A program made the translations under genes and the position numbers. A stretch of 64,000 nt of DNA. Source: an uncultured delta proteobacterium. Its GTDB lineage: Bacteria; Desulfobacterota; Binatia; UBA9968. The notes beneath the pieces were generated by a model. The model searched no databases and was not told the DNA's origin. It was given only the letters and a program-made list of their open reading frames with translations. The stretch lies in the NCBI GenBank assembly GCA_963760795.1, contig CAVXEP010000012.1:96001-160000 (forward strand). Direction: 5' to 3'. Shown here piece by piece: positions 40,907-56,055 of the stretch; the stretch's first letter is position 1; every line of letters begins with the position of its first letter.

Positions 40907-42652
40907 ATGACAACGATTGCCGCTGCTTTGCGCTCGAAGGCCATCAGCGACATCACCGTGCCGCGGATCGGTGCTCTTGGCGTGGTGTCATTGATAACCG
41001 CCGCCCTGGTGGTGGCGCCGATTGCTGCGGTCGTCTGGAACATTTTTCTGCCCAGCGAGGCGACCTGGGAGCACCTGATATCGACTGTCCTGCCCGAGTA
41101 CATCGCCAACACTTTCCTGCTGCTAGTGCTGGTCGCCGCGGGAGTTGTTTGCTGCGGCGTGCTCTCCGCGTGGTTGGTTACCGCCTATGAATTCCCTGGC
41201 CGACGCGTCCTAGAATGGGCGCTGGTGTTGCCAATGGCGATCCCCGCATATGTCATGGCCTATGCTTACACCGATTGGCTCCAGACCTCGGGACCGGTGC
41301 AAAGCATACTGCGCGAATTCACCGGTTGGCGGGTGCGCGAGTACTGGTTTCCGGAAATCCGCTCATTGCCGGGCGCCGCGACCATGCTGTCGCTCGCGCT
41401 CTATCCCTATGTTTACCTGCTGGCGCGCGGCGCCTTCCTTGAACAGTCACGCAGCAGCTATGAGGCCGCCCAACTGGCCGGCTATGGCGCGTGGGGAAGA
41501 TTTTGGCATGTGTCATTGCCTCTGGCGCGCACCGGGATTGTCGCCGGCGTCGCCTTGGCGCTGATGGAGACACTCGCTGATTTCGGCACCGTCTCGTATT
41601 TTGCCGTGAATACTTTTACCGCTGGCATCTACCGCGCCTGGCTCTCCCTTGGCGATTCGGTCGCCGCGGGCCAGCTCGCTACCTGCCTGCTCGTGTTCGT
41701 GCTCGCAATGCTCGCCCTAGAGCGCATGCACCGCGGCGATGCGCGCTATACCAGCAACCGCACACCCATAACCCCGCAACGGCTTGGCGGCGCCAAGGCT
41801 ATGGGCGCATTCGCGCTATGCGCCATACCGATCGCATTCGGTTTCATGGTGCCGGCGGCGATTCTGCTTGAACTGGCCCTGACCGATCCGCAGGTGCAAT
41901 TTGGCGCGCGCATCACCGGACTGATTACCAACACGTTTATTTTAGCTGGCATCGCCGCGATTGCCGCCGTCGTCGTCGCCATGCTGCTGGCTTATGCGGC
42001 AAGGACAGTGAAGAGCCCGCTGGTACAAGCAGCGAATCGCCTGGCTGTGCTCGGCTATGCCCTGCCAGGCGCGGTGATCGCGGTAGGCATTCTTCTACCG
42101 CTGGGCAAGCTCGACAACGCTTTGATCGCCTGGATTTACCAACAGTTTGGCGTGCGCACCGGATTGATTTTAACCGGTTCGGTCACGGCGCTCATCTATG
42201 CCTATCTCGTCAGGTTTCTCGCCGTGGCGTTTCAAACGGCCGAAGCCGGGCTGACACGGGTGACTCCGTCGATGGACGATGCCGCGCGCAGCCTTGGCCT
42301 TTCACCCGGCCGCACCCTGGTGCGGGTGCACATGCCGATCATGCGCAGCAGCATCGCCACCGCAGCGCTGCTCGTATTCGTCGACGTTATGAAAGAATTA
42401 CCGGCGACCTTCGCCATGCGGCCGTTTAATTTCGACACCCTAGCGGTGGAGGCCTACAACTTGGCAAAGGACGAGCGCATCGCCGAAGCCGCCCTGCCGG
42501 CGCTGCTGATGGTCGCCATCGCGCTGTTGCCGCTGATTTTACTGTCGCGCCAGATCGCCAATTCGAGCCAGCGCAACGCATGTGGCTCGCAGTCAGGACT
42601 CTGCTGTCTAGCCGAACCAGGGATCCGAGATGACCACGAGCACTTTACTTGA
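40907..42652 (+). CDS. fbpB: Fe3+ ABC transporter permease
   Basis: PAYVMAYAY, YPYVYLLAR, METLADFG, MKELPAT..MRPFNFDTLA. Confidence 0.92.
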   Translation: MTTIAAALRSKAISDITVPRIGALGVVSLITAALVVAPIAAVVWNIFLPSEATWEHLISTVLPEYIANTFLLLVLVAAGVVCCGVLSAWLVTAYEFPGRRVLEWALVLPMAIPAYVMAYAYTDWLQTSGPVQSILREFTGWRVREYWFPEIRSLPGAATMLSLALYPYVYLLARGAFLEQSRSSYEAAQLAGYGAWGRFWHVSLPLARTGIVAGVALALMETLADFGTVSYFAVNTFTAGIYRAWLSLGDSVAAGQLATCLLVFVLAMLALERMHRGDARYTSNRTPITPQRLGGAKAMGAFALCAIPIAFGFMVPAAILLELALTDPQVQFGARITGLITNTFILAGIAAIAAVVVAMLLAYAARTVKSPLVQAANRLAVLGYALPGAVIAVGILLPLGKLDNALIAWIYQQFGVRTGLILTGSVTALIYAYLVRFLAVAFQTAEAGLTRVTPSMDDAARSLGLSPGRTLVRVHMPIMRSSIATAALLVFVDVMKELPATFAMRPFNFDTLAVEAYNLAKDERIAEAALPALLMVAIALLPLILLSRQIANSSQRNACGSQSGLCCLAEPGIRDDHEHFT

Positions 42653-42732: not shown

Positions 42733-44711
42733 ATGGGTTCCTCCCCGGCTACGATTCCGCCACAATCGAAAGTTCAGATCGGCTCCTGTTCGCCATTGGA
42801 CTTGTTTTCCTAACCGTCACCGGCGCATTCGCTGCCGGCGATGAAGCCAAGCGTATTTTAGCGCTAATCGATTACATCGGCGGCGACTATCGCAACGCCG
42901 TGCAAGGCGGGAAAGTCGTCAGTGACGCCGAGTACACGGAGATGAGCGAGTTCTCGGCGCGCAGCTTGGAGCTGTTCAGCCAATTGAAATCCGCCGAAGG
43001 CGATAAAGCGGGCATCGAAAAAGATCTGCGAGCGCTGGCAAGCCACATACAGCAGAAAACCGGCGAGGATGCAGTGCCGCAGTTGGCCCAGCAGATCAAG
43101 GACCGCTTGATCAAAACCTATAACATCGTCACCTACCCCAAGGCTCTGCCGAACTACGAGGGCGCGAAACTGATCTACATGCAGAATTGCGCTCAGTGCC
43201 ATGGCGAGAGCGGCAGAGGCGACGGCCCCGGCCGCGAGTCGATGAATCCAAAAACACCGCCGCCGGCCAATTTTACCGACGCAGACTTCATGGCCGGACT
43301 CTCGCCTTTTAAAGTCTATAACACGACCACGTTCGGCATCGACAAAACGGCGATGGCTTCCTTCGCCGCGCTGCCGGACGAGCAACGCTGGCAAGTCGCC
43401 TTCTATGTTATGGCGCTACGTTTTCCCGCTGAAACAGCAGCTGCCGGAGAGTCCTGGCTGAAAGGCAAGTCGCTGCCGGCCACCCTCGCAGGCGTCGCCA
43501 CCTTGGCAACTTCTTCAGACAACGAGCTATCCGATAAAATCAAGACGAGTTTTCCCAACGCGCCGCACAACGACATTCTCGCCTACCTCAGGCGCGGGCT
43601 TCTAGAGAAAAAATCGAGCGATCCATTGTTGATCGCTCGCACCCTGCTCGGCGAAGCCGCTGAGATATACAGCAAAGGCGATAAGGAAAAAGCTTACCAG
43701 AAAGCCATCGAGGCCTACCTTGACGGCTTCGAGATGGCCGAGCCGGCGCTGTTCGCCAAGGATGCGGCCTTGGGAAGATCTCTCGAGGCCCAGTTCACGC
43801 AGTTTCGCAATTCGATCCGGCAGGGAGTTTCCGCCGAGGAGATTCAAAAACAACACGCCGAGATCGAAGCCAAGCTCGACCAGGCGGCACAGATGTTGGC
43901 CAGCAGCGATGATTTCTCCGGTTATTACGCATTCTTGAATTCGGCCCTGATCATTTTACGCGAAGGACTAGAGGCGGCGCTGATTCTCGCCGCGATCATC
44001 GCCATGCTGCGAGTGATGGGCGCGACAAAATCGATTCGTTACATCCATTTCGGCTGGATGCTGGCGGTGGCCGCCGGTTTCCTCACCTGGCTCGCCGCGC
44101 AGACCGTGCTGACTTTCAGCGGCCAGCACCGTGAAAGCATGGAAGGATTCATCTCGATCTTCGCCGCGGCGGCGCTGTTCTATGTCGGCTATTGGCTGCA
44201 CACCCGGACCGAGGCTAAACGGTGGCAGGCGTTTATTCAAGACAAAGTCCAAAACGTACTTTCGCGCAAAAGTATCTTCGGACTGGTCGGCATCTCTTTT
44301 TTCGCTGTGTATCGCGAGGCCTTCGAGGTCGTGCTCTTCTATCAGGCGCTCTGGTTACAGAATGAAAATAGCCACCAAGCCATCCTTGGCGGATTCGCCG
44401 CAGGCGTAGCCGCGCTGCTCGCGGCTACCTTTGCGATCTTCAAGCTCGGCCTGCGCATACCGCTAAAATACTTCTTCGGCGTCACCGGCACACTGCTCTA
44501 CATCATGGCCTTCATCTTCGCCGGCACCGGCATCAATCAATTGCAGGCGGCCGGCTGGGTTCCGGCAACACCGCTCGATTTTCCGCCGGCGGTGCCGCTG
44601 TTGGGCATCTATCCGACCATGGAAACCCTGGCAGCCCAGGGACTATTGGTCTGCATATTTATAGCTACCTCGCTATGGATGGCGCATGAACGAAAAAAGG
44701 CAGTGGCTTAA
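42733..44711 (+). CDS. Cytochrome c / FTR1 iron permease (PbrT-like); 5' end uncertain
   Basis: LIDYIGGDY.NAV, CAQCH heme motif, REGLE and YREAFE FTR1 motifs. Confidence 0.9.
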
Positions 44712-44900
44712 ATGCGTGTTCCAAGGCAAGGCGAACAGGAAACGGCGGAGACGGTGACTCAGGACGGCGATGCGCTTCGTTGCCATTGCGGCAGCTTGGT
44801 CGCCCGGCTGGTGCCGAATGGAGTGGAAATCAAATGCCGCCGCTGCAAACGGCGCGTTGTAATTCCGCTCGGTTTGGGCGCTTTTGAAATCTCAGAATAG
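44712..44900 (+). CDS. Mu Com-like zinc-ribbon microprotein
   Basis: LRCHCGSLVAR...VEIKCRRCKR; ATG immediately follows the FTR1 stop. Confidence 0.75.
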   Translation: MRVPRQGEQETAETVTQDGDALRCHCGSLVARLVPNGVEIKCRRCKRRVVIPLGLGAFEISE

Positions 44901-45006
44901 AGCCAATAATCGAGAAGCCATGGCACTTGATTGAAAGCTAATTAAGTTTTAATGTTCAGTTACTTAAAGAGTAATATTTAGTATCGACTAATAATTTTAC
45001 TTAGAG

Positions 45007-45037
45007 TTGACAAATATTATTGATTTCGATATACGAA
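45007..45037 (+). promoter_or_regulatory. sigma70 promoter of the TonB operon with candidate operator
   Basis: TTGACA-17bp-TATACG; TTCGATATACGAA overlaps the -10; TTAG-TATCGA-CTAA at 44978-44991. Confidence 0.7.
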
Positions 45038-45045
45038 CATAATTA

Positions 45046-45120
45046 GCGGCCAGCGATCTAGAATCCAGAGCCCGGATTTTGCCGAAAAAATATCGGCAAA
45101 ATTACGGGCATTTTTATTGT
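45046..45120 (+). promoter_or_regulatory. Leader attenuator: tandem repeat units overlapping an intrinsic terminator
   Basis: GCGGCCA-GCGATCTA-GAATCCA-GAGCCC, then gcccg..attttgccga-loop-tcggcaaaat..cgggc-ATTTTTATTGTTT, before the first SD. Confidence 0.8.
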
Positions 45121-45138
45121 TTACGGAGGTCAATCTAA

Positions 45139-45351
45139 ATGTACGGCATCAAATCACCCCAGGGCAGATGGTCGGTCTCGCTTTGCAACTGTAGTCAGGA
45201 CACCGCCCACTTTCACTACGGCAGCGTCGTCCTGCACATCGCCCGTGACGACCTGCGCGAGCTTGGTCTCGCCATGCAAAGCGTCGCCGAAGGTAGCGAC
45301 CTAACTGATACGGAAAATCACATCGAGTTAAAGAAAGGTCTGGTCCAATAG
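45139..45351 (+). CDS. Small hypothetical protein with a CxC-x5-HxH motif
   Basis: GGAGG SD; LCNCSQDTAHFHYG; first gene of the operon. Confidence 0.65.
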   Translation: MYGIKSPQGRWSVSLCNCSQDTAHFHYGSVVLHIARDDLRELGLAMQSVAEGSDLTDTENHIELKKGLVQ

Positions 45352-45353
45352 TC

Positions 45354-45963
45354 ATGTCGGCATTTATTGCAATCATCATCAAAGGCGGCATCGTCATGAT
45401 CCCGCTGCTCGCTTGCTCCTTGATCTCACTCGCGCTCACCATCGAACGGTTTGTGTTTTGGGCCAAACTGAAAACCAAAGATGTCCTGGATCAAATCTTG
45501 TCATTGGTCGAAAAGGGCGAATTCGAACAAGCTCTTAAAACTGGGCAAGACCTCCAGCCAGCCAATCGCGCGGGTTTTAGCGGCGGGTATCGCGCACCGC
45601 AATCCCGCGCCGGCGAAGGCAATGGAAGCTCTGGCGCAGGCCGAGATTCCCGTGCTCAAAAGCCGCCTCGGAATTCTCGACACCATCGTGACGCTTGCCC
45701 CTCTGCTCGGATTGCTCGGCACCGTCGTCGGCATGATCGGCTCCTTCGATGTCATGTCGGAAGCGGGCATGGGGCAACCCCACGCCATTACCGGCGGAGT
45801 CGCGGAAGCGCTCATCGCCACTGCCACCGGCTTGTTGATCGCGATCTTGACCCTGGTCTCCTACAACTACTTCACCGCCAAGGTCGAGCGCGAAATGGAC
45901 CGCATGGAGCACTTCAGCTCCTCGCTGGAATTGTTGCTGCATGAACATGCGGGGAAGCATTAA
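45354..45963 (+). CDS. exbB: MotA/TolQ/ExbB proton channel (frameshift near 45545)
   Basis: GGIVMIPLL..S, LAPLLGLLGTV.GMI, GGVAEALIATA.GL. Confidence 0.9.
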
Positions 45964-46376
45964 TGCGCATTCAACGCCGCAGTATCAAGAAAGCGCGCAT
46001 CGAGATCATCCCGATGATCGACACGATCTTTTTTCTACTGGTATTTTTCATGATCTCGACCTTGTCGATGACCCAGTTCAAAGGCATGCCGGTCAATCTG
46101 CCCAAGGCGGCGTCCGGCCAGCAGGCGCCCGCCGAGAGCGCGGCGATCACGATTGATAAAGACGGCCGGTTGTTTCTCAACCAGCAAGCGATCGACAAAG
46201 CGGCTCTCGGTGAAGCTTTGAGCCAGCAACTTGCGAAGAATGCCGAGATGTTGGTCGTCATCAACGCCGACGACGGCGTTCAGCACGGCCAAGTGGTCGA
46301 AGTCATGGACATCGCCCGCGGCGCCAACGTGGCAAAGATGGCCATCGCGGTCAAACCGAAGGAGCAGAAAAAATGA
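45963..46376 (+). CDS. exbD: Biopolymer transport protein ExbD
   Basis: IIPMIDTIFFLLVFFM, VNLPKA, INAD..V.HG.VV.VMD. Confidence 0.92.
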   Translation: MRIQRRSIKKARIEIIPMIDTIFFLLVFFMISTLSMTQFKGMPVNLPKAASGQQAPAESAAITIDKDGRLFLNQQAIDKAALGEALSQQLAKNAEMLVVINADDGVQHGQVVEVMDIARGANVAKMAIAVKPKEQKK

Positions 46377-47203
46377 ACGAGCGCTGGTTGGTATCTTCAT
46401 TCACTGCGTCGTCGTTGATTCATTTGGGAATAATTCCGTTGGCTGCGTTGGTGATGCACGCCAAACCGATTAAACCCGCCATGGTTCCCATTGAGCTGGT
46501 GGATGTGGCGCGCGTCGAGGAACCGAAGAAAGTCGAAGTCCCACCGCCTCCGCCTCCTCCAGCGCCCAAACCCAGGCTGCAAAATATCACCGCGCCGAAG
46601 CTTATATCCAAACCGGATTTCGAAACCAGCCCGCTGCCGCCAACCGGCAACACCAAGGAAGAGATCAAAGAGAAACCGGTCGAACAGCCGCTCGCCTCGC
46701 TGCCGGATAACTCCGGCGCCGCCAAGGCTGGATGGAATGTCGGCGCGCGCGCCGCGGAAGCCGAAGGCAGCGCCGCCGGCGCCGGCAATCTTTTCGGCAA
46801 GGGCGACGTGGGCGTGGTCGGCGGTAGCGGCGTGGCCGGCGGTGGCGGCGGCACAGGCGCGTCGGGATTGGGTCGAGGCGCCAAGGGCGACGGCACCGGC
46901 GGCGGCGCGGGCTCCGGCGAAGCATTATCGGGTCTCGCTCGCCCGCTCGGCGGTTACCAAGTCAAGCCGCGCTATCCCGAGTCCGCCAGAAGAGCGGGTG
47001 TTCAGGGAGTAACAACGTTGCGCGTGCGTGTTTTGGAGAATGGCCGGGTCGGCGAAGTGGTGGTCGAACAGTCAGCCGGCTTCCGGGATCTCGATTTCGC
47101 CGCGATGGACGCGGTCAAAAAATGGCTCTTCGAGCCGGCTCGCCGGGGCAAAGACGCGGTGTCGGTCTGGGTGATGTTACCGGTGAAGTTCGAACTGCAC
47201 TAG
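46373..47203 (+). CDS. tonB: Energy transducer TonB
   Basis: TM SxxxH motif, Pro-rich linker, YPESARR.G.QG, W.FEPA. Confidence 0.92.
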   Translation: MNERWLVSSFTASSLIHLGIIPLAALVMHAKPIKPAMVPIELVDVARVEEPKKVEVPPPPPPPAPKPRLQNITAPKLISKPDFETSPLPPTGNTKEEIKEKPVEQPLASLPDNSGAAKAGWNVGARAAEAEGSAAGAGNLFGKGDVGVVGGSGVAGGGGGTGASGLGRGAKGDGTGGGAGSGEALSGLARPLGGYQVKPRYPESARRAGVQGVTTLRVRVLENGRVGEVVVEQSAGFRDLDFAAMDAVKKWLFEPARRGKDAVSVWVMLPVKFELH

Positions 47204-47414: not shown

Positions 47415-47488
47415 AAGCCAGCCATCCTCTCCTCCGGACGTGGAAAGCCAGCCAATCAAGCAACCCAAACACTATGGAGGATGAGATG
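47415..47488 (+). promoter_or_regulatory. HemP-responsive direct repeats with an anti-SD segment
   Basis: AAGCCAGCCA at 47415 and 47445; CATCCTCTCCTCC between them is complementary to GGAGGATGAGATG. Confidence 0.7.
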
Positions 47489-49662
47489 AGTCGGCAACAA
47501 AAGCGTGCGATCGAAAGAAAGAAGGGCAAGACGGCGTTCCAAAAACTCTGTCTTGCCGCGGGCGAAGGAGTTGGCAAGGCGATGGCTTTCAGCTTTGCGT
47601 TGGCAAGCCACGCAGGCGCGGCGGAGCCGAAAAAAGAGGAACCGATCACCCTGCCGCCTGTGGTGGTGCAGGATCAAGGCAGCCCCTACACTGCCGGAAT
47701 CGTCCCTGTCGAGAATACCTGTACCACTGCAGGATATGCCACAGTCGATTACCGTGATACCGCAACGATTAATGCAGGAACGCGGAGCTGCTAGCTTCCA
47801 CGATGCGTTGCGCAGTGTACCCGGTATTAGTTTCCAAGCAGGCGAAGGGCGGCGCTCAGGGCAACAATTTGACGTTGCGAGGCTATAACGCGAGGAACGA
47901 CCTTTTCATTGACGGGGTTCGCGATCAGGGCTCGTATTTTCGCGATATATTCAATCTCGAATCGATTGAGGTTCTAAAAGGACCGTCCTCACCTATACTT
48001 CGGCCGTGGCTCGACCGGTGGCGCGATCAATCAGGTCAGCAAAGTTCCACAGCTTACGCCGAGCTACGGCGGCATGTTTGCTCTGGCGGCAACGGGGTTT
48101 ATTTGCGGGGCACGAGCGATGTCAACCACCCAATAACCCGGTCGCCCACGCGGCTTTCCGCGTCAACTTGATGGCCCACAAGGACGATATTGTCGAGTCG
48201 CGACATTTCAGAGCAGCAACGATTGGGATTTGCGCCGTCGATCTCGTTCGGTCTCGGCACCCCAACCCAGTTAACCTTGAGCTATCTTATTCAAGGCGAA
48301 GACAATATTCCGGATTATGGTTTGCCCTACGTGGAATGGCAACCCGTTCCGCACCGACCGGAACAGCTTCTATGGCTTTGACCAGTGAAGATTACGAAGA
48401 AGACAATGCTGAATCTCGGCACGTCGCGGCTGGATCATCGCTTCAACGATATTTTCAGCTTGCGGAATACCCTACGCTACAGTCATAACGACCGGGAGCA
48501 CGAAACCACAGCGCCACGCGTCAATGTCATCCCCACCCTGTTCACCAGGAATAGACCGGCGCGCGATATTACTGAGGCGCTTCTCAGCAACCAAACGGAT
48601 CTAACCGCCAAGTTCGACACGTGGGGCTTTAAGCATGCATTAGTCTCAGGGCTCGAGTTTTCCCGGGACTGGTTGGATCGAACCAATTGATGCTTTCGTG
48701 GGAGCGCCGCCGGCAAACGCTATCAATCCAAACCCATACGCCAGTACCGCGGGCATGTCACACTCGGCTATCGCAGCGCGCAGACGGCGCCGCCTTCGGA
48801 TTCGGCATCTTCGCCGCAGATCAAATCAAACTGAACGAGTATTTTGAACTCGTCGGCGGCGTCCGTTGGGATTATTTCGACAACGACTTCGAAGGATCAC
48901 GCATAATACCCTGACGCGATAAGCTCGTTCGGACGGGTCGACGGATAAAATGTGGAGTTATCGGGGCGGACTGATCTTTCACCCGACCCCGTCACAGAGC
49001 TACTATTTCTCCTATGCGACCTCGTTCAATCCCTCCGCCGAAGCCATCCCTCAGCCAGCCACCAACGGTACTCCTCCGGAAAAGAATAGAATCTTCGAAA
49101 TCGGCGGAAAAGTGGAATTCTTCAATGGAACCTTAAACCTGCAAGGCGCTGTATTTAGAATCGACAAAACCAATGCCCGTGTAACTGATCCATTAGACCC
49201 AACCGGGACGCTCGTGCTTGACGGTGAGCAACGTGTTCAGGGTGTGGAATTCGGCATCGCTGGCCGCATTCTCCCCAACTTGAATGTGTTCGCTGGATAC
49301 ACTTTTCTCGATTCGAAGTTTCGCAAATCCCCGACCCCAGCCGTCGAGGGCAATCCGATATTAAACGTGCCGAAGCACAGCGCGAACTGTGGGTAACCTA
49401 CGACTTTTTCGAAAAGTGGCAGATCGGCGGGGGGCCGACGTATGTCAGCAGCTCGATCTACAACAATGCCGCGAACGTCACCCGTGTCCCGGTTCATGTT
49501 CTCTGGGACGCGACGGTGGCGTATCAGCTAACCAAGAATTTCCAATTCCGGCTCAATGGTATCAATCTTACCAATGACCATTACTATTCGGCTCTCAGCG
49601 GAGGAAACGTGTTGCCTGGAAATGGGCGCACGTTCATCCTCAGCACGAGCTTCAAGTTCTAA
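47486..49662 (+). CDS. TonB-dependent siderophore receptor (Fiu/PiuA-like), multiple frameshifts
   Basis: [47 protein letters not shown]-terminal F, spread over at least 6 ORF pieces. Confidence 0.85.
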
Positions 49663-54612: not shown

Positions 54613-55091
54613 CTAGCTCTTCTTGTATATCTGTTGCGCGAGGTAATTTTGGTATCCGACTTCTTCAATCTCATGCAGCTGGGTTTCGATCCAGTCGACA
54701 TGCGCTTTCTTCATCAACGAGAATATGCTCCAAAAGCTCCCGGCTGGCGTTGTCACTCGCGTCGAAGCAGCTCTTGATGCCGCCTTTTAAAACTGCCAGT
54801 GCGCCCTCTTCCAATCCAAGATCATTTGCCAATTGCTGTTTCACCGATCGCTCCGACGCTGATTTTGTCATAAGCGGTGAGATTGGGAATCCCTTCGAGG
54901 AAAAGAATCCGTTCGATAATTTGATCGGCGTGCTTCATCTCTTCAATGGATTCTTTCCACGCCACCCCTGCCAGCACCTCGTAGCCCCAGTTTTTGCACA
55001 TCTTGGAGTGAATAAAATACTGATTGACGCCGGTAAGCTCTTTGCGCAGCACTTCGTTAAGAACCTTGATGACTTCAGGACTTCCTTTCAT
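54613..55091 (-). CDS. bfr: Bacterioferritin (two frameshifts)
   Basis: MKG, ELT..NQYF.H, ESIEEMKHAD (heme Met), RILFLEG.PN, DWIETQL, NYLAQQ. Confidence 0.92.
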
Positions 55092-55404
55092 ACCTTACCT
55101 CCGTACGGTTTATCTAAGCATGTACTTCGGCAAAGAACAAAGCGGATTATAGACTTTTGCTGAATTTTTCCAGCCGCCGATTCTCATCGGACGTCCTCTC
55201 TGTCATTCTCAATAGGACCATAGTCCACTTTGATCAATTGCCCGTGAACACTTTCGCCATCAGAAAACTAAAGACACCGGTGTTTCCCATAGTTGAAGTT
55301 TTTTGCAGCCCACATTTTCAACAATGACAATTTATCTTTGGTCCAGCCTCGATAAACCAAGCCAATCGGACGCGGCACGCTAAGTGCTTCTTCAGCTAAA
55401 CAAA

Positions 55405-55464
55405 GAGGCCAGCGGTCACGAACCCAGAGCCCAGCGTTTTGCCTTAGCGGCAAAACCCGGGCTC
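55405..55464 (+). promoter_or_regulatory. Second copy of the repeat+hairpin leader, upstream of dpsL
   Basis: GAGGCCA-GCGGTCAC-GAACCCA-GAGCCC (23/28 identical to the 45046 copy) plus GTTTTGCC/GGCAAAAC stem. Confidence 0.75.
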
Positions 55465-55554
55465 TCGGATTTGCTTACGATGAGATGCCAGCGCAAAAGA
55501 ATAATGATATGGTGTTTGTCCATCCGTAAACAAATCAATCAGGAGGAGAATATT

Positions 55555-56055
55555 ATGGGCACTAAAGGAAGAGAAATTGTCGGCATGGACGTAGAACAAC
55601 TGTTGAAGACACTCAACATGGCTTTCGCCGACGAGTGGTTGGCTTATTATCAATACTGGCTCGGCGCCAAAGTCGTGAAGGGGCCGATGAAAGAAGCGGT
55701 GATCGCCGAACTTTTGCAACATGCGGCGGACGAGCTTCGTCATGCCGGCCTGATCGCGGGCAGGATTATTCAGCTCGGCGGCACGCCGGTGGCCGAGCCG
55801 AAAAAATGGTACGACGTGACCAGTTGCGGTTACGACGCGCCCGATGACCCGTTCGTCGAGACTATCCTGAACCAAAACATCAAGGGCGAGCGCTGCGCCA
55901 TCGACTTTTACAAGAAGCTGTTAGAGGCGACGCAGGGCAAAGATCCGGTCACTTACAATATCGTATTGCAGATTCTCCAGGACGAAGTGGCGCACGAGGA
56001 AGACCTCCAATCGCTCGCTGAGGACCTGGACTTCATGTTGAAGAAATCACAATAG
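55555..56055 (+). CDS. Ferritin-like DPSL (Dps-like) protein
   Basis: ADEWLAYYQYW, ELRHA...RIIQLGG.P, two Cys (SC.Y, ERCAI), E..HEED; AGGAGG SD. Confidence 0.88.
   Translation: MGTKGREIVGMDVEQLLKTLNMAFADEWLAYYQYWLGAKVVKGPMKEAVIAELLQHAADELRHAGLIAGRIIQLGGTPVAEPKKWYDVTSCGYDAPDDPFVETILNQNIKGERCAIDFYKKLLEATQGKDPVTYNIVLQILQDEVAHEEDLQSLAEDLDFMLKKSQ

Follow-up and report, generated by a model that had tools for sequence, protein, structure and literature searches.

In bacteria, control of iron uptake is commonly attributed to Fur-type repressors, cascades of ECF sigma factors and small RNAs acting in trans; RyhB and PrrF1/2 are Fur-controlled small RNAs, which act in trans and repress iron-using proteins. 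In the IRE/IRP system of animals, messages for uptake and for storage carry in their untranslated regions a small bulged hairpin, defined by a CAGUGN apical loop and a bulged C and read by a protein reporting iron shortage. The leaders of the RAT/BglG-LicT, ANTAR and LoaP systems carry a short hairpin overlapping an intrinsic terminator, and binding of the protein results in read-through, while Com of phage Mu, a small zinc-finger protein, binds a hairpin of the mom leader and activates expression. All iron riboswitches proposed so far act, to our knowledge, on exporters; the czcD/Sensei type has larger, multi-helix aptamers, which mostly turn on metal exporters at high metal. These czcD (NiCo) and 'Sensei' RNA leaders have been proposed to respond to Fe(II) (accessible part of PMC9389577). 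The HMP-PP (thiS motif) riboswitch is very compact: its tiny aptamer shares bases with an intrinsic terminator and its ligand suppresses termination (accessible part of PMC6478431).

The window investigated here, i.e. the whole stretch of 64,000 nucleotides analysed from a member of the Binatia, contains two copies of a 29-nt core followed by a hairpin, both on the + strand: copy A (motif and terminator, 45045-45119) precedes an ExbB/ExbD/TonB operon and copy B (motif and platform, 55404-55465) precedes dpsL. A sequence-only reading of this DNA had reported 23 of 28 identical positions, and direct reading of 55405-55432 against 45046-45073 returns the same count. The compensatory change it described is likewise present, as one G-C to A-T exchange between the inner stems of copy B (GTTTTGCC/GGCAAAAC) and copy A (ATTTTGCC/GGCAAAAT), and copy B is indeed closed by GAGCCC (55427-55432) and GGGCTC (55459-55464), followed by tcggattt; copy A is closed by GCCCG/CGGGC, followed by ATTTTTATTG. 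The 26-nt pattern GGCCAGCGNTCNNGAANCCAGAGCCC matches twice in the window (mean of 100 shuffles 0.00) and, with up to two mismatches allowed, twice in the whole 6.58-Mb genome. The genome-wide model search suggested by that reading, performed with the covariance model R1, recovers copies A and B at E 1e-12 and 2.5e-11; the next two matches in the genome, at E 0.43 and 0.75, were taken as noise. Both copies fold more stably than all 200 shuffles (z -3.5 and -3.8). Judging from sequence, copies A and B probably belong to a family of cis-acting 5' leader RNAs that has so far gone undescribed, and the element has the appearance of a new RNA switch in the response to iron starvation.

An exact IUPAC pattern scan, which fixed 16 bases, matched at least 122 stretches. 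Among the matches listed, 105 distinct instances lie in the examined loci, 11 of them looking like chance matches in coding sequence, and 87 of the 94 remaining ones possess a compact hairpin beginning at GAGCCC. With R1, matches occurred in 27 of 151 genomes from the class to which the window belongs and in 81 of 121 from the Nitrospirales, the latter with up to six clustered copies, and it found one to two copies in each of five other genomes, four of which hold a single copy before one gene. Presence in Chloroflexota is sporadic (2 of 101 genomes in the class sample, both already known). Looser model matches contain a second core form, CCGGAGCCC. Rfam 15 yielded no match in the whole window at gathering threshold and, at E<=10, a single irrelevant one in 55300-55600, located at the ribosome-binding site (22 bits, cut-off 94); eleven loci from five phyla gave only tRNAs at gathering threshold, and three further loci gave nothing at E<=1. 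No description of the element was found in the literature searched (openly accessible texts, without supplements), nor by term look-up in the texts of PMC11109978 and PMC8632094. The multi-copy state of some genomes might suggest a mobile or repetitive extragenic element (REP/MITE-like) without specific function, and copies scattered irrespective of gene function or orientation are what the sequence-only reading had named as speaking against its own proposal. However, there are two copies in 6.58 Mb here and one in several genomes, they always lie in sense before a gene, none is found within or after genes once chance coding matches are set aside, and the hairpins, where they vary, have covarying and not copied sequences, all of which renders a mobile element extremely improbable.

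The core is a 25-nt 5' hairpin, in which P1 joins GGCC with G(A)GCC; above it follow one G-C pair, a small internal loop with invariant A residues, a P2 of 3-4 bp and a free loop. The 3' strand of P1 (AGAGCCC) doubles as the 5' strand of a much stronger, covarying downstream hairpin. In an alignment of 78 sequences (A2), P2 pair 12-20 appears as GC in 50, AU in 14 and GU in 14 sequences and is never unpaired, the helix pairs 30-70 and 31-69 occur in two and six pair types, respectively, and 91.6% of the cells are paired, compared with 12.8-61.8% when the partners are slid. Since the scan fixed 16 bases, 'invariance' in this alignment is partly by construction. A second, raw count on 70 distinct 25-nt hairpins found P2b paired in 70/70 (six pair types), P2c in 70/70 (four types) and P2a in 67/70; G9-C22 is paired in all 70 as well, once as A-U. 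Across the family, P2 takes the variants GGU/ACC, GAU/AUC, GGC/GCC, GAC/GUC, GAG/CUC and GCA/UGC. A second exchange of G9-C22 (G to A, C to U) was seen by eye in locus L187. P1 is invariant in all sequences compared, and the evidence for its pairing is therefore folding, together with the G9-C22 exchanges next to it (two sequences), and not covariation. The length of P2 ranges from 3-nt loops to an insertion of ~40 nt, its loop varies freely (CACGA, CUAGA, AUUCA, UGUUC), and G-U pairs are confined to the sense strand (14 and 6 of 78). Selection on RNA structure, as claimed earlier from the two copies, is thus seen family-wide in compensatory and wobble changes and in the variable length of P2. 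Covariation from two copies alone is weak evidence; the family-wide counts make the case solid. Reading P2 as a T-loop or tRNA T-arm was dropped because U13-A19 changes to C-G, and a K-turn in the internal loop because there is no tandem G-A.

The same features bear on the possibility of a DNA operator, in which the 26 conserved bases would bind a transcription factor just downstream of the start, the CCAGAG words forming a direct repeat and the hairpins being unrelated. CCAG(A/C)G does occur twice in the core, ~15 bp apart, and the core lies at most ~10 bp from the predicted start sites; but an operator does not account for paired positions changing together (six P2 pairings) or for G-U pairs on the sense strand only, P2 loops of 3 to ~40 nt would move its half-sites apart, and core and downstream hairpin are joined in the same register in every case. 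We therefore consider an operator very unlikely. The likeness to the IRE lies in a small bulged hairpin associated with uptake and storage-type genes; in contrast to the IRE, the loop of the present element varies freely, its conserved bases are situated in the lower stem and internal loop, and its readout would be a terminator or a ribosome-site helix.

The element displays what is expected of riboswitch-like leaders in general, namely a conserved covarying structure in sense orientation within 5' leaders, directly before genes, as well as one sensor joined to different expression platforms. Among the matches listed, 60 of the 87 compact hairpins are terminator-like, with at least five U in the next 8 nt, and seven lie over the Shine-Dalgarno site or start codon (start codon at most 10 nt from the 3' strand, whose purine-rich sequence resembles a Shine-Dalgarno site). 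The U-less platform of the dpsL type is seen in six leaders. In 26 of 40 Nitrospirales matches, the chosen ORF starts no more than 50 nt from the end of the model. Some members are located 110-270 nt from the next ORF, far enough for an independent small RNA to fit in, and the loci could accordingly be read as 'sibling' small RNA genes resembling RyhB or PrrF: an RNA of ~65-75 nt with its own iron-regulated promoter would end at the terminator, its conserved 5' part would be a seed pairing with mRNAs of iron-using proteins, and read-through would be incidental or secondary. Besides these distant members, the promoter-like site of copy A, the 60 terminator-like hairpins among the 87 of the matches listed, the up to six copies per Nitrospirales genome clustered among iron genes and an iron context recalling PrrF1/2 agree with such genes, and Fur-controlled small RNAs share with the element the iron regulon, the short RNA with a terminator and, sometimes, several copies near iron genes. 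The element, however, stands in cis, exists also without a terminator and does not match the Rfam models of these RNAs; in seven instances the 3' strand of the hairpin is the ribosome-binding site and no terminator is present, the U-tract is absent from all six dpsL-type leaders and elsewhere mostly runs right up to the Shine-Dalgarno site, so that a second promoter would not fit in. Furthermore, every copy points in the direction of the next gene, in four of the five other genomes the single copy stands before one gene, and a seed kept across at least four phyla would need equally conserved targets. Small RNA genes thus appear an unlikely explanation.

A cis-acting leader recalls the antitermination systems, whose short conserved hairpin likewise overlaps an intrinsic terminator with its 3' part; unlike these, the element has no ANTAR dual hexaloop, no RAT consensus and no cognate protein gene consistently adjacent to it, and its conservation across phyla is unusually strict. 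With the HMP-PP riboswitch, as far as the accessible part of its description goes, it shares the compact build and a sensor overlapping the terminator, but the HMP-PP aptamer resides almost wholly inside the terminator stem, whereas the present element is a separate 5' hairpin overlapping the terminator by ~7 nt; the gene context there is thiamin and here iron, and ligand binding, known for HMP-PP, is a mere possibility for the element. There is neither sequence or structure likeness nor an Rfam match between the two. The difference from czcD/Sensei is that of a 25-nt hairpin before uptake genes, and the Rfam NiCo model does not match the element.

Copy A represents the terminator form. A sigma-70-like promoter (TTGACA, a 17-nt AT-rich spacer and TATACG; 45007..45035, + strand) precedes its conserved 5' hairpin (45045..45073, P2 GAU/AUC), and this promoter arrangement recurs in 12 of 137 upstream regions, all of the ExbB-operon type. 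The promoter was found by eye; the scanner did not call it because the last -10 base is G. The Fur consensus has 19 bp, and in the 12 promoters the best matches to it reach 10-12 of 19, at least 11 being attained by 8% of random 60-mers of the window. The predicted intrinsic terminator (45070..45119) consists of a GC-rich hairpin (45070-45109) with the U-tract ATTTTTATTG directly after it (45110-45119), and the Shine-Dalgarno sequence GGAGG (45126-45130) lies downstream of the U-tract. It was read by eye and by folding, the terminator scanner not having listed it (loop of 7, long imperfect stem). Contigs of two RNA-type runs (6-7% of words; 90% likeness) do not cover 44800-45180 or 55087-55848 and are uninformative on transcription.

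Copy B is preceded by a different putative promoter. The sigma-54 consensus is GG, 10 bases and GC (TGGCAC-N5-TTGCW), and a -24/-12 element of this type, CGGCAC-N5-GTGCT (GG-N10-GC), is found at 55373..55388 (+ strand), from which a dpsL start at about 55397-55401 is predicted. TGGCAC/CGGCAC-N5-(G/C)TGCT occupies the same place in five of the six dpsL-type leaders, the -12 of the sixth (L033, 19008 copy) reading GGGCT, and rpoN is encoded in the genome (E 1.5e-62). The promoter hence fits the sigma-54 type, its activity being a prediction. Further upstream, a block seen in all six dpsL-type leaders, …TTTTGCAGC.CA.ATTTTCAACAATGACAATTT… (55288..55335, + strand), could serve as the enhancer to which a sigma-54 activator binds. 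Because the conserved -24/-12 element lies 8-20 nt upstream of the motif in all six leaders, the motif falls inside the predicted dpsL transcript, and not outside it, as the earlier proposal would have required for its abandonment.

The conserved, aptamer-like 5' hairpin of copy B (55404..55432, + strand) forms P1 between 55407-55410 and 55427 plus 55429-55431, with A55428 bulged, pairs G55412 with C55425, and forms P2 between 55414-55416 and 55422-55424 around the loop CACGA. The 5' strand of the platform hairpin (55426..55465, + strand) overlaps the 3' strand of P1, and the fold of 55399-55480 has -33.6 kcal/mol. GGGCTC is followed by TCGGATTTGC, and 55466-55474 read CGGATTTGC; copy B therefore lacks the U-tract directly after the stem that marks an intrinsic terminator, and the terminator logic is not simply transferable to it. 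Absence of the U-tract had been noted before, and the U-less form turns out to be kept in all six dpsL-type leaders, the four counted having 3-4 U in the next 8 nt. A second GCCAGCG word (55487..55493, + strand) is present in four of the six, and the dpsL Shine-Dalgarno sequence, AGGAGGAG, lies at 55541..55548 (+ strand). Two candidate structures were rejected: pairing of CCCA with the dpsL start codon, proposed by RNAalifold, has just four invariant pairs, and the GGCC/GGUC 5' mini-hairpin of the minimum-free-energy fold of copy B cannot be formed by copy A (GAUC) and others.

According to Pfam, the genes downstream of the element comprise ExbB/ExbD/TonB, cassettes of ECF sigma, FecR, a TonB-dependent receptor with STN domain and PepSY_TM, in that order, TonB, FTR1, Cupredoxin_1, DUF4198, CCP_MauG-like and porin-like genes, as well as Bfd-like ones (weak matches) and DpsL; they are mostly low-iron genes. 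Not obviously related to iron are DUF6125 followed by acyl-CoA dehydrogenase in Chloroflexota (11 and 3 first ORFs) and HD-GYP followed by AraC in single-copy Nitrospira genomes, and 42 of the 101 downstream ORFs of one set have no family. At one locus (L238), HD-GYP adjoins TonB, a receptor and two ferritin genes. Of the small RNA-level regulon envisaged by the sequence-only reading, the iron-related gene set stands and the smallness does not, the family being far larger and extending over several phyla; taken as a whole, that interpretation is partly supported.

How such a leader could work may be outlined as follows. The transcript would begin a few bases before the 25-nt hairpin, at the predicted start sites, and the platform would be an intrinsic terminator directly before the ribosome-binding site in most members, a helix whose 3' strand is the ribosome-binding site itself in some, and a stable hairpin without U-tract in dpsL leaders. 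RNAfold, applied to the first 30 columns, gives the P1/P2 fold in 39 of 78 sequences with about -3 to -7 kcal/mol, platform hairpins have about -20 to -50 kcal/mol, and in these models the two folds are mutually exclusive. Unaided, the RNA would adopt the strong hairpin and expression would be off; an effector holding the 5' hairpin together would prevent the strong hairpin and turn expression on, the same polarity being predicted for the terminator and the ribosome-site variants. Candidates for this effector are a small molecule or ion, which would make the leader a riboswitch, and a protein that binds RNA (IRP-, RAT- or LoaP-like); in either case the effector most likely reports iron shortage, because the genes presumably controlled are mainly those induced when iron is scarce.

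The opposite polarity has also to be weighed. Here, the 5' hairpin of the same cis leader would form by default during transcription and polymerase would pass; an iron-loaded factor would bind the 5' strand and free AGAGCCC for the terminator, switching uptake genes off in iron-replete cells, and the same event would have another consequence in the dpsL leader, as had been proposed earlier. Uptake genes off and a storage-like gene behaving differently at plentiful iron would fit this scheme, as does the distinct and conserved platform of the dpsL type. However, with the folding energies given above the 5' hairpin should lose unaided, and the conserved bases occupy both paired and loop positions of the hairpin, as for a folded form that is bound, which is why we regard the reversed scheme as improbable. 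For the preferred scheme, in which the effector turns expression on, size speaks about the kind of effector: hardly any known aptamer is as small as a 25-nt hairpin, and this favours a protein over a small molecule. That it is nevertheless a true aptamer, a new and unusually small riboswitch class directly reading a small-molecule or ion signal of iron status, is possible, albeit doubtful. In Nitrospirota and Binatota, the entire regulon of iron acquisition (TonB/ExbBD, FecI-FecR-FecA cassettes, Bfd, FTR1, DpsL) would then be under its control, the CCGGAGCCC 'type 2' core and the dpsL form would represent variants that differ in output or specificity, and bacteria would possess an RNA counterpart to IRE/IRP logic without the protein.

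Whichever effector is involved, a leader that is compact, strictly conserved and located in front of the very genes for uptake, mobilisation and Dps-like proteins would add an undescribed layer of iron control. It occurs in Binatia as well as in two thirds of the Nitrospirales genomes sampled, a group that includes key nitrifiers in soils and treatment plants, and it makes testable the long-standing question whether bacteria detect a shortage of iron through RNA. Being small (~65 nt with the terminator), it would also be convenient as a genetic part. Within the window, the element would explain two intergenic regions and place dpsL and the TonB operon in a single regulatory family.

The operon led by copy A (45139..47203, + strand, assigned with Pfam) begins with a conserved 70-aa ORF (45139-45351), followed by ExbB (45354-45963, in two frames), ExbD (45963-46376) and TonB (46373-47203); a TonB-dependent receptor (in pieces), PiuC-like, DUF3016, PepSY_TM, flavodoxin and siderophore-interacting protein genes continue up to 54467. 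The 70-aa ORF had been likened to Com and the motif named after it. It has no Pfam family at E<=0.01 nor even at E<=5, and it shows one conserved Cys and an H-x-H-Y-G…L-H pattern, whereas the two CxxC pairs expected of a Com-like protein are missing; its Atlas cluster, annotated 'hypothetical protein', has 216 members and is commonest in Binatota. The Com label is consequently dropped, as is a tie of the motif to this ORF, which is absent from most motif copies. The attribution of an iron-storage gene to copy B fared better: dpsL (55555..56055, + strand) encodes a 166-aa ferritin-like, Dps-like protein (Pfam Ferritin, E 1e-24) with a four-helix ferritin-like domain, whose best solved relatives are 2vzb (E 1.2e-42), 8w1d (9e-17) and 2clb (4e-15), the latter two titled 'DPS-like protein', while bacterioferritins follow only at 1e-7 or weaker. 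The divergent bfr of that reading corresponds to a bacterioferritin-like gene on the - strand (54613..55091), which lies in three frames in the assembly; contigs of relatives have one letter fewer in this gene at 54705/54706 and at 54848/54849.

The window holds two plus-strand copies of the element, one (copy A, 45045-45119) before a 70-aa ORF and an ExbB/ExbD/TonB operon, the other (copy B, 55404-55465) before dpsL. Copy A reads AGC-GGCCAGCGATCTAGAATCCAGAGCCC, then GGATTTTGCCGA-AAAAATA-TCGGCAAAATTACGGGC and ATTTTTATTG; copy B reads AGA-GGCCAGCGGTCACGAACCCAGAGCCC, then AGCGTTTTGCC-TTAGC-GGCAAAACCCGGGCTCT. Direct reading bears out the comparison made in the sequence-only reading: 23/28 identity, an inner-stem exchange of A-T to G-C, the closure GAGCCC/GGGCTC in copy B and, in the same copy, tcggattt replacing the U-tract. 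Two matches to the 26-nt core lie in the window (0.00 expected), and the count for the whole 6.58-Mb genome is also two; there, a covariance model (R1), built from 78 sequences gathered by a fixed pattern, recovers the same two sites (E 1e-12 and 2.5e-11) and no further credible one, the next matches having E 0.43 and 0.75. A mobile repeat, the reading that had been named as a danger to the proposal, is contradicted by these two copies and by the low counts elsewhere, as R1 finds one or two sites in each of five other genomes (Nitrospira, Chloroflexota, Myxococcota), and we reject it.

The first 29 columns of the alignment of the 78 sequences are nearly invariant, partly by construction, as the pattern fixed them; columns 12 and 20 covary (G-C 50, A-U 14, G-U 14, A-C 0). 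Among looser R1 matches, U13-A19 is exchanged for C-G, G9 and C22 jointly become A and U in two unrelated sequences, and the inner stem P2 appears as GAC/GUC, GAG/CUC, GCA/UGC, GGUC/GACC or GGAA/UUCC, with loops from 3 nt up to a roughly 40-nt inserted hairpin. Across 70 distinct 25-nt versions, the P2 pairs P2b and P2c are kept in all 70 (six and four pair types, respectively), as is G9-C22, and P2a in 67; shifting the partners by one column as a control gave far less pairing. The outer stem P1 (GGCC with G-GCC, one A bulged) shows zero variation, so that the case for its pairing comes from energy folding (39/78 minimum-free-energy folds) and from its neighbours. In the platform, the downstream hairpin which overlaps the 3' strand of P1, pair 30-70 just above the conserved base is G-C in 52 and A-U in 21 cases, and pair 31-69 takes six pair types. 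One-strand wobble pairs, compensatory exchanges and an expandable P2 together show selection on RNA, and by the same features the reading as a DNA operator is rejected. A second core form, GGCCAGAGGUC-loop-GACCGGAGCCC with a 4-bp P2 and CCGGAGCCC in place of CCCAGAGCCC, is found in Nitrospirales clusters (L232, L234, L235, L236, L237), where ECF sigma factor genes and small Bfd-like ORFs follow it; this could be a variant of different specificity.

Among the 94 non-chance instances, 87 have a compact hairpin starting exactly at GAGCCC, which is followed in 60 of the 87 by at least 5 U within 8 nt, while in seven a start codon lies at most 10 nt downstream and the 3' strand is a purine-rich ribosome-binding site; the dpsL-type hairpins have neither. 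Since AGAGCCC doubles as the P1 3' strand and the platform 5' strand, the two folds are mutually exclusive, and the platform, computed at -20 to -50 kcal/mol against about -3 to -7 for the 5' hairpin, is expected to win unaided. In the absence of an effector, the platform would thus prevail, leading to termination or a buried ribosome-binding site, and an effector stabilising the 5' hairpin would permit read-through or translation. Binding would be expected at P1 and the internal loop, where bases are near-invariant, leaving the apical loop free; so small an element speaks somewhat more for a protein effector than for a small ligand. In design the element resembles protein-dependent antiterminators. 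It also resembles the HMP-PP riboswitch, likewise compact, whose tiny aptamer shares bases with a terminator and whose ligand suppresses termination (PMC6478431). The features of the family make it somewhat probable that the element is a cis-acting leader ON-switch, and we hold with greater confidence that it is a structured cis-regulatory leader RNA; most likely, it is a cis-acting leader switch of a new class. No family in Rfam 15 matches it, and searches of the open literature yielded no description of it, the czcD/NiCo class (PMC9389577) being the sole iron riboswitch met there.

The evidence is comparative throughout, the RNA runs having offered no usable coverage, and related genomes among those counted here are not independent samples. 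When up to 3 mismatches are allowed, 37/101 related genomes and 34/60 genomes from the same family carry the core, in 1-4 copies no more than about 10 kb apart; 3-mismatch matches in coding sequence (L002, L004, L006, L013, L016, L018) were dropped. The exact IUPAC pattern (16 fixed bases) gave at least 122 matching stretches in one-genome-per-species contigs, and the matches listed include Candidatus Binatia/'delta proteobacterium' MAGs, Nitrospira/Nitrospiraceae, Myxococcota, Thermodesulfobacteriota, Bdellovibrionota, Omnitrophota and Chloroflexota (Dehalococcoidia, Anaerolineae, Thermoflexus). Records that carry an ExbB-type leader like copy A, together with the Atlas cluster of the 70-aa ORF, place the window's organism with the Binatia. 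The fetched loci comprise 105 distinct instances, 11 of them apparent chance matches within genes (peptidase, radical-SAM, CheR and others). One of the 78 seed rows (L022) derives from a genome marked as unpublished, and all claims stand without it. R1 has matches in 27/151 genomes sampled from the window's class and in 81/121 from the order to which a Nitrospira genome belongs, there in clusters with up to six copies per genome; in one Chloroflexota class only 2/101 genomes were found, both already known, and presence in this class is sporadic.

By Pfam, first ORFs in Binatia and allies are the 70-aa ORF followed by ExbB-ExbD-TonB, Cupredoxin_1 (4), DUF6662 (8), CCP_MauG-like (3), DUF4198, Porin_O_P-like (3 and look-alikes) and DpsL (6 including the window). 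Those of Nitrospirales are HD-GYP (15/36 in one Pfam set), ECF sigma factors (7, each followed by FecR, an STN-domain receptor and PepSY_TM), TonB (2), STN-receptors (2) and small ORFs with the Bfd cysteine pattern, whose Fer2_BFD matches are weak (E 0.005-1.5, below the Pfam cut-off). In iron clusters of Nitrospirales the leader also precedes small Cys-rich CxxC…CxxC ORFs of 55-63 aa, none with a Pfam family above cut-off (L235:6815-6982; L236:6027-6203; L238:2501-2692). In the L238 cluster, HD-GYP genes lie amid TonB, a receptor and two ferritin genes; an Omnitrophota record has FTR1 and an OprB porin after the element, a Myxococcales record FeoA, and Myxococcota porin-like proteins. Iron shortage induces TonB systems, FecI-type cascades and Bfd, and the Dps-like protein of Sulfolobus reportedly responds to peroxide and to iron depletion by induction. 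'Low-iron genes' is therefore the most fitting label for the set, and a single polarity, with the effector present and the switch ON when iron is short, would fit these genes, dpsL included. Exceptions to the iron theme are, in Chloroflexota, a DUF6125/ATC-hydrolase-like gene with an acyl-CoA dehydrogenase behind it (11 + 3 cases), in Nitrospira genomes with one copy, HD-GYP ahead of an AraC regulator, and the 42/101 first ORFs that have no Pfam family. The Chloroflexota DUF6125 leader is single-copy (L043, L072, L077, L086, L108, L116 and others), with no evident iron link. The earlier proposal of an RNA-level iron regulon is upheld; its association with 'Com' fails, no Com-like protein being tied to the element by Pfam, conserved residues or Atlas cluster, and its different outputs on uptake and storage genes are a hypothesis.

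Copy A lies 5-6 nt behind a promoter-like site, TTGACA-N17-TATACG, and the end of its U-tract is 6 nt from the GGAGG of the conserved 70-aa ORF (45139-45351, plus strand; M.GIKS..GRWSVSLCNCS.DTAHFHYGN.VLHI…KKGLVQ), which has no family in Pfam and 216 members in its Atlas cluster. By Pfam, ExbB, ExbD, TonB and a TonB-dependent receptor follow on the plus strand and, further downstream, a PiuC-like oxygenase, DUF3016, PepSY_TM/flavodoxin and a siderophore-interacting protein. In many Binatia and in one Thermodesulfobacteriota record, too, the ExbB operon opens with this 70-aa ORF. The promoter spacer (45013-45029, AAATAATTAT.ATTT..A) is kept in 12 ExbB-type leaders; it does not exceed background against the E. 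coli Fur consensus and may be recognised by a regulator particular to the lineage. A 603-aa ORF immediately before copy A (42900-44711, plus strand) combines a cytochrome c domain with an FTR1 iron permease and is preceded by an ABC permease (40907-42652).

Copy B sits in a 463-nt gap between a minus-strand bacterioferritin-like gene and a ferritin-like gene, for which the label dpsL is sound because its closest solved relatives are Dps-like proteins (2vzb 1.2e-42, 2clb 4e-15). The dpsL-type comparison comprises six leaders, the window's and five in four related genomes, one adjoining a broken dpsL copy. Each of the six has P2 in its GGTCACGAAC form and a stable hairpin without U-tract; four have a second GCCAGCG about 30 nt downstream. 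A sigma-54-type element, TGGCAC/CGGCAC-N5-(G/C)TGCT, lies 8-20 nt upstream in five of the six, the exception being the 19008 copy in L033 with GGGCT at the -12, and a conserved AT-rich block (…TTTTCAACAATGACAATTT…) stands in all six some 55 nt upstream of that promoter-like element. Sigma-54 is encoded in the genome itself. The motif is thereby predicted to begin the dpsL transcript, at its extreme 5' end and under sigma-54 control, and this answers the concern that it might fall outside that transcript. Lacking a U-tract, the copy B hairpin is unlikely to terminate and may affect translation, stability, or neither; RNAalifold on five dpsL-type leaders gave no convincing alternative fold. In the window, the AT-rich block and then the putative sigma-54-type promoter span 55288-55388. 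Reading frames are broken over two or three frames in the bacterioferritin-like gene (54613-55091, minus strand), ExbB (45354-45963, plus strand) and the TonB-dependent receptor (47474-49396, plus strand). As DNA contigs of relatives have one letter fewer at 54705/54706, at 54848/54849 and at 45534, and extra letters around 48910-48939, we read these breaks as probable single-base assembly errors and not as signs of pseudogenes.
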